Below are positions 12,724-61,897 of a DNA stretch of 64,000 nt, in pieces (position 1 is the stretch's first letter; each line of letters starts with the position of its first letter). Below the pieces are notes generated by a model. The model searched no databases, had not been told where the DNA came from, and saw only the letters and a list, made by a program, of their open reading frames with translations. The DNA is taken from assembly GCA_017610385.1 (NCBI GenBank), contig JAFCCC010000001.1:1-64000 (forward strand), given 5' to 3'. A program made the translations under genes and the position numbers. This DNA comes from Candidatus Nanohalarchaeota archaeon (GTDB taxonomy: Archaea > Nanohalarchaeota > Nanosalinia > Nanosalinales > JAFCCC01).

Positions 12724-12758
12724 AGCTATCTTTTCTAAAATTTCATATATAAAATAAT

Positions 12759-13018
12759 GGGAATGCCAGAAAATGGACTTCTTTGAAAATCAGGTTAATC
12801 CATATCTTTTCTCTCCTCCGCGACCCCACAAACATTCAAAATACAGTTTATGGCTGCTCCCGTCAAGGTCTGACCCATTCGCTGCAAGTTAAATCCTGCA
12901 GGACGGAGAATCAACGTCCAGATATGGGCCATCTCCTCGAAGTAGCCTCTTCTCTGACTTCGACTCCGCTATAGAGGGTTTGCGGTAACAAGTTTCCCCT
13001 AAAAACCCAGTCTATCCC
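12759..13018 (-). ncRNA. ffs: archaeal SRP (7S) RNA
   Basis: helix 8 GGUCAGACCU-UGAC-GGGAGCAGCC; helix 6 CUGCAGG/CUUGCAG; paired ends GGGA/UCCC; TATA upstream. Confidence 0.88.
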
Positions 13019-13195
13019 AATGTAAAAATTCATCAGCATTTATATAACCTTTATGCCTGATTTTAGAAACAAATTTAAATCTGAATACAAAGTTATAGAA
13101 TAGGACAATGAAAAGTGATTGCCTTTGTCGGTGCCATTAACGGTCAAATTCTTTTATCAAGTTTAAAAACTAAAAAATCAATTAATTTAAAAAAT

Positions 13196-39589: not shown

Positions 39590-39675
39590 GCCTTGGTAGC
39601 TTAGCTGGTAGAGCGCGTGGCTGTTAAAATTTTGCAGTAACCACGAGGTCGCAGGTTCAAGTCCTGCCCAAGGCG
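39590..39675 (+). tRNA. tRNA-Asn(GUU) with 13-nt intron 39627-39639 (37/38)
   Basis: cloverleaf; BHB CTGT/GCAG with TA|A bulges. Confidence 0.95.
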
Positions 39676-39732
39676 CACTGTTCTTAAAAATAAAACTATT
39701 ACATTTTTATCTCATTGATTTCAATTAGATGT

Positions 39733-45370: not shown

Positions 45371-45508
45371 GCCACAGTGGCTCAATTGGCAGAGCAGCTG
45401 CTTCGTATTGTAATGAGGAGGACACTTATTCCGATAAAATATGAGGACGTGAACACCCCCCGAACAAGAATCAGCAGCAGGTTGTGGGTTCAACTCCCAT
45501 CTGTGGCT
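45371..45508 (+). tRNA. tRNA-Thr(CGU) with 65-nt intron 45408-45472 (37/38)
   Basis: acceptor GCCACAG/CTGTGGC; GCTGC-TTCGTA|A-GCAGC; U73; BHB with one mismatch. Confidence 0.93.
45413..45463 (+). ncRNA. box C/D sRNA inside the tRNA-Thr intron
   Basis: ATGAGGA-11nt-CCGA-6nt-ATGAGGA-12nt-CCGA. Confidence 0.8.
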
Positions 45509-47514: not shown

Positions 47515-47607
47515 TTTTGTCTTTAGACAGATATTTAAATTTGTTCTCAGAATGAAAGGGTAGTGGGTTGCTTGCAACTCGCAGGTGTGTTAACTGGCAT
47601 TTCAGTT

Positions 47608-47721
47608 GCGGGGGTAGCCAAGTGGTCAACGGCGATAGGCTCAAGTACTGAATTTGAGATCTGATTTAATGAAGAAACCTATTCCCATAGGGGTTCGTCG
47701 GTTCGAATCCGGCCTCCCGCA
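47608..47721 (+). tRNA. tRNA-Leu(CAA) with 31-nt intron 47646-47676 (37/38)
   Basis: acceptor GCGGGGG/CTCCCGC; long variable arm; ATAGG-CTCAAG|A-CCTAT. Confidence 0.93.
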
Positions 47722-47847
47722 CAATCCCAAAATCTTGATTTAATTCTAATTGGCGCCGAAAAAGTGAACGAACTATCAAATAGATTAAGAAAAGATGGCT
47801 TTAGTGTTATTCAAAAAGAAATACTGGGATGGCTTGTGAATTTATTC

Positions 47848-61351: not shown

Positions 61352-61897
61352 ATGTCAATTACAGGGACGCTCGCACAAAATAAAGTTAGAGTTACAAAAG
61401 AAATAGATCAGATTCACTCAGAAAAATATTATGGAAAAATAATTTCTGATTCTGGAAAAGATGTATTAGAATTATCTCTAACAGAAACGATGCATCTAGT
61501 CAATAAAGGAGAATTAACATTAAAGGACGGTAGAAAAAAATTAAATAATGAAGTAGTTTACGAGCGATTCTGCGAAATCGATGCAGAATTTCCACAGAAA
61601 TACACAGTTTATGCGGATTTGCGGGAACGAGGATATATTGTAAAAAGTGGTTTCAAATTTGGTACACACTTTAGAGTTTATTCCAGAGGAGTAAACCCTT
61701 ACAAAGAAGGCCAAAAAGAACAAAAAGAACATACTAAATGGGTTGTACATGCAGTTCCTGAAAATTATACATTATCTTATCAAGAAATGTCAAGATCTGT
61801 CCGTTTGGCTCAAAACATTAGAACTAAAATGCTTTGGGCGGTTGTAGATTCGGAAAATGAAGTCACGTACTATGAGATATATCGTTTAAGACCATAG
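61352..61897 (+). CDS. endA: tRNA-intron (BHB) splicing endonuclease, catalytic subunit
   Basis: VYADLRERGY, GFKFG.HFRVY, EH, VRLAQNIRTK. Confidence 0.95.
   Translation: MSITGTLAQNKVRVTKEIDQIHSEKYYGKIISDSGKDVLELSLTETMHLVNKGELTLKDGRKKLNNEVVYERFCEIDAEFPQKYTVYADLRERGYIVKSGFKFGTHFRVYSRGVNPYKEGQKEQKEHTKWVVHAVPENYTLSYQEMSRSVRLAQNIRTKMLWAVVDSENEVTYYEIYRLRP

Follow-up and report, generated by a model that had tools for sequence, protein, structure and literature searches.

Why does a tRNA-Leu(CAA) gene of a nanohalarchaeal genome keep an intron of 31 nt, in which a poor splice motif overlaps one of the short segments that resemble the boxes of a methylation guide? We examined this question in a stretch of 64,000 nucleotides (hereafter referred to as the window; G000:C13:1-64000, where G000 is the genome, 788 kb in size, 32% G+C and 93.5% complete). 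The original prediction, made on the letters of the window, had read the intron as a K-loop guide aimed at C34 of its own tRNA, and the comparative data described below support this reading, the methylation itself being a predicted outcome. We found the module to be real and conserved, with structural support. Its best-supported explanation, to which we assign a probability of about 0.65, is that the intron serves as a minimal, single-kink-turn ('half-mer') guide of the box C/D type for 2′-O-methylation of nucleotide 34 (Nm34), nested within the pre-tRNA.

The features of the locus are listed in Table 1. By hand reading, the acceptor stem of the tRNA is GCGGGGG/CTCCCGC. The intron boundaries could be fixed because relatives have intron-less genes with the loop CTCAAGA and the conserved A38, together with the stem ATAGG/CCTAT; these intron-less genes share the exon body of the G000 gene. 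A model with a 19-nt intron and a weak anticodon stem, proposed by ARAGORN with the -i option, was rejected in favor of the ATAGG/CCTAT stem with the 31-nt intron. Like canonical archaeal introns, that of tRNA-Leu(CAA) lies between nt 37 and 38 in a genome that encodes the splicing endonuclease. An Rfam scan of positions 47560-47780, with E-values up to 10, found nothing but the tRNA above noise.

Table 1. Coordinates of the tRNA-Leu(CAA) gene, of the putative guide module in its intron and of other features of the window
Feature	Position	Strand	Basis or remark
Class II tRNA-Leu(CAA)	47608-47721	+	Rfam tRNA, 42.9 bits; hand-parsed cloverleaf
Exon 1, nt 1-37	47608-47645	+	Exons match the intron-less genes of relatives
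Anticodon stem ATAGG/CCTAT	47635-47639 / 47678-47682	+	Hand parse
Anticodon-loop nt 32-37, CUCAAG	47640-47645	+	C34 = 47642
Intron, 31 nt, canonical 37/38 position	47646-47676	+	Flanked by anticodon stem and conserved A38
Leader	47646-47651	+	U47646 pairs with A47652, closing the helix; 47647-47651 form a 5-nt hairpin loop (MFE)
Antisense element AUUUGAG	47652-47658	+	Pairs with nt 32-37 plus intron nt 1 (47640-47646)
Spacer N2 N1, AU, 2 nt	47659-47660	+	N2 = A facing G31, unpaired
Box D′-like CUGA	47661-47664	+	Sequence reading
K-loop linker UUUAAU, 6 nt	47665-47670	+	Begins with the TTTA spacer (47665-47668)
Box C′-like AUGAAGA	47669-47675	+	Sequence reading
3′ splice-motif remnant	47671-47677	+	GAAG (47671-47674) with CUCA, 2/4 pairs; bulge A47675 A47676, then A47677; overlaps box C′
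Exon 2	47677-47721	+	A38 (47677), long variable arm, T arm, acceptor, discriminator A47721
EndA, tRNA splicing endonuclease	61589-61870		PF01974, 97.7 bits; 184-aa ORF
Archaeal SRP RNA	12755-13022	-	Rfam RF01857, 110 bits

The antisense element and its target form an antiparallel duplex of 7 bp, consisting of six Watson-Crick pairs and one G·U (G47645·T47653), and G47656, the fifth nucleotide upstream of CUGA (N+5), stands opposite C34 (C47642). This pairing of ATTTGAG with CTCAAGT, including its single G·U and the placement of G47656 on C34, had been predicted exactly to the base, and the coordinates given at that time for CTGA, TTTA and ATGAAGA were all correct. The arrangement would be that of a box C/D guide, in which the antisense lies directly upstream of D′ and its target at N+5. 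CUGA and AUGAAGA, joined by the 6-nt linker, can form a K-loop with predicted tandem sheared G·A pairs (G47663·A47672 and A47664·G47671) followed by U47662-A47673 and C47661-G47674, a pairing pattern that would match the K-turn/K-loop of box C/D guides. The end of the linker, AAU, stands in for the 3-nt bulge of a kink-turn; in homologues, the linker as a whole is replaced by loops of 5-11 nt or by a G+C hairpin that carries a bulge of 3 nt. The minimum free energy (MFE) structure calculated by RNAfold for the whole precursor contains, besides the cloverleaf, both the 7-bp helix and a stem of 3 bp that closes the K-loop, and the predicted fold sequesters the entire anticodon loop.

Some properties of the module count against a guide. 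The duplex is short, at 7 bp with one G·U, and position 5 of C′ is A instead of U, so that a Watson-Crick pair replaces the U·U that is usual in box C/D kink-turns. Only one D-like and one C-like box are present in the 31 nt, as opposed to the two sets of box C/D guides, and no second, conserved box pair was found among the homologues. Nothing in the Leu(CAA) intron is aimed at nt 39, leaving a single guide. With one motif set instead of two, the module would act like a box C/D guide without being a standard member of these sRNAs.

To evaluate conservation, we assembled Leu(CAA) introns from genome contigs, metagenome contigs and 371 genomes of the DPANN phylum that includes genome G070 and is titled Aenigmatarchaeota (hereafter, G070's phylum), where 39 of the 371 genomes gave matches, one of them not a tRNA. 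Parsing of 49 Leu(CAA) genes yielded 46 distinct introns. The layout of antisense, two nucleotides and YYGA was found in a fixed register in 34 of the 46, most of them from G070's phylum; the original prediction had named loss of the register in relatives as grounds for abandoning it, and the register is kept. The GAG of the antisense is retained in 33 of these 34 introns, the remaining one, L106, having GCG. Module-bearing introns are 22-53 nt long with guide duplexes of 5-7 bp, and include near-copies of the G000 layout such as the 26-nt intron of G148. The leader varies in both length and sequence from homologue to homologue. The 12 introns without the module are L012 and L093, which have a canonical bulge-helix-bulge (BHB) motif, and L082, L092, L085, L108, L140, L142-L145 and L147; L082 and L092 come from large genomes, one of which is titled Heimdallarchaeota, and the D′ box of L140 is degenerate.

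Some of these genes have peculiarities of their own. The smallest module intron is the 22-nt intron of L129 (genome G219), in which the C′ box extends into exon 2; A38 would pair with position 1 of D′, placing the 3′ splice site inside the K-loop stem. Several of the genes L073, L100, L106, L108 and G000:C11:148623-148788 have two introns, that of the module and another located in the T-loop or close to it. Many Leu(CAA) introns of this design (loci L111-L139) end in UAAG-AA or GAAG-AA, a tail that is typical of Leu(UAA) introns and pairs fully with CUUA in Leu(UAA). Because of this shared tail, the sequences suggest that the Leu(CAA) genes may have arisen from Leu(UAA) genes, with the upstream antisense alone having been updated.

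We then evaluated the proposed pairings in the homologues. An alignment (A1, made with MAFFT) of 26 Leu(CAA) introns of the K-loop type had standard pairs in 89.9% of the cells of the whole structure, as compared with 33-55% when the partners were slid. In A1, N7 pairs with nt 36 in 26/26 introns and N8 with nt 37 in 14/26, and position 1 of D′ is pairable with position 6 of C′ (D′1:C′6) in 25/26. The nt31:N2 combination is GC in 22, AU in three and otherwise in one, the exception being G000. For a larger sample, 34 Leu(CAA) and 40 Leu(UAA) design introns were registered mechanically at the first UGA to occur 2 nt or more downstream of D′; this rule was chosen since GAUGA offers two GA steps, and it left a few rows mis-registered. 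The 40 Leu(UAA) introns had been picked by D′ type only, with their C′ boxes not yet visible. D′1:C′6 is C-G in 17, U-A in 41, U·G in 10 and unpaired in six of the 74 introns, and hence pairable in 68. The association of C at D′1 with G at C′6 gave a Fisher p of 1e-6 overall, 3.8e-7 for Leu(UAA) alone and a weak 0.1 for Leu(CAA) alone, values that ignore shared ancestry and so overstate significance. CCGA is accompanied by GAGG and UCGA by GAGA, and G occurs at C′5 in 6 of the 10 introns with C at D′2 as opposed to 8 of the 64 with U. Thus, the box pair proposed to form a D′/C′ K-loop covaries. N2 is complementary to nt 31 of the tRNA in 62/64 homologues (A:U in 28, G:C in 34), in contrast to G000, whose A at N2 leaves G31 unpaired, a further point against a guide function there.

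The original prediction had also spoken of another intron of the same register and of a general class of self-guiding mini-introns. No other intron of this design was found within the window, where the 13-nt intron of tRNA-Asn and the 65-nt intron of tRNA-Thr do not have this register. Outside the window, other tRNAs of G000 carry the module. It occurs in the Leu(UAA) gene at C9:9376-9499 (-), which has a consensus AUGAUGA C′ box; in a gene hand-read as Glu(UUC) at C9:6351-6504 (-), with AUGA as D′; and in the Lys(UUU) gene at C11:148623-148788 (+), with CUGA as D′, a hairpin and an NC pair that is imperfect. N+5 falls on nt 34 in all three genes as parsed by hand, which agrees with the notion of a general class. 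All four module tRNAs of G000 decode purine-ending split codon boxes. The Asn, Ser(CGA) and Arg(UCG) introns of G000, as read by hand, have plain BHB strands without the module. Within the window, tRNA-Asn(GUU) (39590-39676) provides a contrast to tRNA-Leu, in that the mini-BHB strand of its 13-nt intron is plain (GCAG and then UA ahead of A38). The intron of tRNA-Thr(CGT) (45371-45508; intron at about 45408-45472) resembles an entire box C/D sRNA whose boxes are variants, AUGAGGA...CCGA...AUGAGGA...CCGA, with a G5-C2 pair in each of the two motifs. The D guide of this intron matches 11/12 nt of 23S rRNA at G000:C6:2854 (23S gene, C6:248-3192), and neither of its guides addresses its own anticodon.

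Because the T-loop is a weak anchor where A+T content is high, a search for the design across the whole G000 genome was noisy, and we used its matches in tRNAs only. For other genomes, the pattern devised on Leu(CAA) was recast for Leu(UAA) and Lys(UUU), with the reversed pattern serving as the control. Among 201 sampled genomes of G070's phylum, the Leu(UAA) pattern was found in 98, as compared with 28 having control matches, and the Lys(UUU) pattern in 51, as compared with 24 control genomes. The layout is thus widespread in another DPANN phylum as well, in support of a general class. The pattern GGCGNNNNNCTCAAGB was discarded as a Leu(CAA) probe because it was too unspecific, its controls being matched equally often.

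The distribution in the closer relatives of G000 is different. G000 is the sole member of its family, and its order coincides with its phylum in the collection (70 genomes). Leu(CAA) genes found there by similarity are mostly intron-less, and a Leu(CAA) intron of 23-53 nt is present only in G000 and G048, a third match not being tRNA-like; the 50-nt intron of G048 is a canonical BHB intron (CUCA/UGAG). The restriction of the Leu(CAA) module to G000 among the 70 genomes of this phylum counts against a guide. The Leu(UAA) pattern had, beyond G000, merely two doubtful matches in this order. Module introns and an anticodon stem ending in GG thus link G000 to G070's phylum rather than to its own sampled relatives. 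This sharing possibly reflects ancient retention followed by loss in halophilic lineages, transfer of introns, or a doubtful placement of the one-member family of G000.

G000 encodes the proteins that a box C/D guide would need: fibrillarin (PF01269, 266 bits), Nop5 (PF01798, 121 bits) and L7Ae (PF01248, 99.8 bits). Its Nop5 is 284 aa long, and the best match among solved structures is the short Nop5 of A. fulgidus (1NT2_B, residues 78-283); given this match, the idea that the G000 protein is devoid of the dimerising coiled coil had no basis and was dropped. Fibrillarin is present in 199 of the 201 genomes of G070's phylum, and its co-occurrence with the module is uninformative. The endA gene resides in the same window as four tRNA genes, intron-bearing or plain. 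Elp3 (TIGR01211) was not found in the 93.5%-complete G000 genome, whereas four archaeal controls scored above the cut-off. One gene of the PF01171 type (Ncs6/TtcA-like) was noted at C10:14479-15015.

The guide pairing has to be set against what splicing demands. No canonical hBHBh′ motif, in which two bulges of 3 nt flank a 4-bp helix between nt 32-35 and the 4 nt preceding the last 2 of the intron, was found at the 3′ splice site of G000: as originally noted, the helix there is poor, with CUCA and GAAG forming only two of four pairs, and the MFE structure contains no BHB. A relaxed splice motif is possible at this site. The 3′ strand makes 3-4 pairs in 28/28 Leu(UAA) design introns, and in 32/34 of those of Leu(CAA) AG is present at positions -4 and -3. 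In Leu(CAA), the 3′ BHB strand is often xAAG, giving 2/4 pairs in 19/34 and fitting U34 better. As the guide and splice pairings are mutually exclusive, a refolding step of the kind considered for pre-tRNA-Trp is implied; the guide helix covers nt 32-37, including the nucleotides at the 5′ splice site, and the RNA must therefore refold before it is cut by the endonuclease.

Could the module instead be a resemblance that arose by chance, or a remnant of the splicing signal itself? A chance origin, from short A/U-rich motifs within a relic intron, is suggested by the lengths of the motifs, merely 4 and 7 nt in a 32% G+C genome, and by the post hoc writing of the strict rule used for counting (GAG followed after 2 nt by YYGA and, one or more nucleotides further on, by UGA, the NC positions being pairable). 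This rule was satisfied by 47 of 200,000 mononucleotide shuffles of the Leu(CAA) intron and by 31 of the 46 distinct Leu(CAA) introns, against 0.029 expected from the shuffles. Together with the Leu(UAA) replication (98/201 genomes versus 28 control genomes) and the covariation, these comparative data already contradict chance, which we consider very improbable. A more serious alternative is that the K-loop is an architectural element, bound by L7Ae, that either assists a relaxed splice motif or stabilises or marks the excised intron, with no methylation guided and with the antisense helix being the old central helix of the BHB. The geometry invites such an interpretation, since UGAG plus two unpaired nucleotides is also the canonical 37/38 BHB arrangement before exon 2, as in L093 and L012, and the K-loop occupies the position at which exon 2 starts in canonical introns. 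If the K-loop was inserted at that point of the BHB, then N+5 falls on C34 automatically, so that the register alone does not decide between the readings. It also fits that the 3′ splice site lies 1-6 nt downstream of C′ in homologues, that the 3′ BHB strand of G000 is weak and absent from the MFE structure, and that DPANN endonucleases with inserts reportedly tolerate non-canonical motifs (PMC5829648). What argues against it is the extent of the antisense: it reaches nt 36 (26/26), nt 37 (14/26) and nt 31 (complementary in 62/64), destroying the 5′ bulge and opening the last pair of the anticodon stem, effects not expected of a splice helix. The antisense is thus not the splicing helix, because its cover of nt 36 and 37 buries the bulge at the 5′ splice site. 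A separate 3′ strand is, moreover, retained in the 32/34 introns with AG at -4 and -3, and since C34 is matched by the upstream GAG but often not by the 3′ strand (xAAG), it is in the upstream copy that pairing at nt 34 is under selection. The complementarity between N2 and nt 31 is what a guide duplex starting at N2 would predict, and is not predicted by a BHB bulge. The caveat attached to the original prediction, that TGAG may simply be a relic BHB helix, is thus correct as to the geometry, which does coincide, and fails to account for the antisense spanning nt 36-37 and nt 31 or for the separate 3′ strand. Moreover, tRNAs with the module are known from elsewhere as C/D targets at nt 34, and a role of L7Ae in tRNA splicing is not described in the literature searched. 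On balance, we regard a contribution to splicing or intron fate in place of methylation as unlikely.

Still less probable, in our view, is that the module recruits some kink-turn-dependent activity other than fibrillarin or merely masks the anticodon loop, thereby affecting timing or quality control or blocking wobble modification. Such a role would be in keeping with the predicted fold, which hides the anticodon loop fully, and with the absence of a detectable Elp3, by which wobble chemistry in G000 may be unusual. A precedent is the modification of C34 of tRNA-Leu(CAA) in yeast and human, which depends on the intron and is carried out by a protein enzyme (PMC4090602). The fixed 2-nt spacing to D′ and the pairing that begins at N2 are, in contrast, a specific signature of box C/D guides. 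We know of no other tRNA enzyme in archaea that is guided by a K-turn, which likewise weighs against recruitment of this kind.

The guide reading can be placed among known systems. In Pyrococcus, nt 34 of tRNA-Leu(CAA), Leu(UAA), Met and Trp are predicted C/D sRNA targets, and the Trp guide alone is intronic (PMC7994747; PMC7668247); the statement in the original prediction that Cm34 of tRNA-Leu(CAA) is guided there by a separate sRNA is backed by these sources, as a prediction for P. furiosus. The target nucleotide and the tRNAs are identical to those considered here, but the Pyrococcus sRNAs are bipartite, have their own genes and act in trans, whereas the Leu(CAA) module is intronic. The closest counterpart is the intron of pre-tRNA-Trp(CCA) (Haloferax volcanii; Pyrococcus sR50), which guides Cm34 and was called a 'unique example' in a 2014 review (PMC4090602). 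Both introns are located at 37/38, both have an antisense to their own anticodon region with C34 at N+5, and in both the guide pairing excludes the splice motif (PMC4090602; PMC7994747). With a length of about 65 nt or more, the Trp intron has a full set of C, D′, C′ and D boxes with two guides, for C34 and U39. Unlike it, the Leu(CAA) intron has 31 nt, one D′/C′ pair and one guide, so that what it shares with the Trp type is the antisense to its own anticodon loop with N+5 at nt 34 and not a complete nested sRNA. Elongator tRNA-Met of Nanoarchaeum equitans has a 66-nt intron that is a candidate C/D sRNA (PMC3491384). It is likewise a DPANN tRNA intron with box C/D features, but is long and has terminal C and D boxes, and self-targeting of nt 34 does not figure in the passages of that paper that concern it.

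Natural guides have been described with two sets of C/D motifs (PMC9670817), and the bipartite form has been called 'absolutely conserved' (PMC1635284). Engineered RNAs with one motif, the 'hemi' or half-mer RNAs, resemble the Leu(CAA) module in having one kink-turn and one guide; their activity required high concentrations of salt or SAM, and site specificity was lost (PMC1635284). These RNAs are artificial, whereas the Leu(CAA) guide is tethered covalently to its target through the hairpin loop. Compared with a canonical archaeal BHB intron, that of Leu(CAA) shares the 37/38 site, the 3′ strand pairing with nt 32-33(-35) and the 2-nt bulge before A38, with EndA being encoded, but its central helix has only 2/4 pairs and it has the additional upstream antisense and the inserted K-loop. 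The eukaryotic Trm4/NSUN2 system acts on the same nucleotide of the same tRNA and requires the intron (PMC4090602); it differs in that a protein enzyme reads the shape of the precursor and modifies the base, without a guide RNA. Our search of openly accessible full texts found no description of single-kink-turn guide introns in tRNA-Leu or in DPANN. The base modification made by Trm4/NSUN2 at C34 is m5C; PMC4090602 describes it in other terms.

Taken together, the comparisons point to a guide that may work as follows, with protein binding, methylation and the order of events being inferred steps. CUGA as D′ and AUGAAGA as C′ would fold into the K-loop through the tandem sheared G·A, U-A and C-G pairs; L7Ae would bind it, and Nop5 and fibrillarin would then assemble on the complex. 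The upstream antisense would pair with its own anticodon loop, and C34, opposite N+5, would receive the 2′-O-methyl group (Cm34). Methylation might take place before splicing or after it, the intron acting in cis within the precursor or in trans once excised. For cleavage, the RNA would adopt a second fold, in which CU(32-33) and AG(47673-47674) are paired and AA|A38 is bulged out.

If the Leu(CAA) intron is such a guide, the only textbook case of a tRNA intron encoding a guide for its own tRNA, tRNA-Trp, would be extended to several other tRNAs and into a large portion of the archaea that has been little studied. It would also provide a natural minimal substrate for the box C/D RNP, of 22-50 nt with one kink-turn, would bear on why guide RNPs are bipartite, and would supply a selective reason for keeping introns in tiny genomes. 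A broader proposal, which we consider evenly balanced between true and false, is that natural box C/D guides with one kink-turn ('hemi' guides) form an entire class in the introns of DPANN archaea, by which each precursor would program the 2′-O-methylation of its own wobble nucleotide; it would cover tRNAs for purine-ending split boxes, namely Leu UUR, Lys AAR, Glu GAR and probably others. Should this class exist, the view of methylation guides as necessarily bipartite would be overturned, and Nm34 may be the chief restriction on wobble where Elp3-like enzymes are absent, Elp3 not having been found in G000. The introns would then be functionally indispensable, which would explain their retention in reduced genomes.
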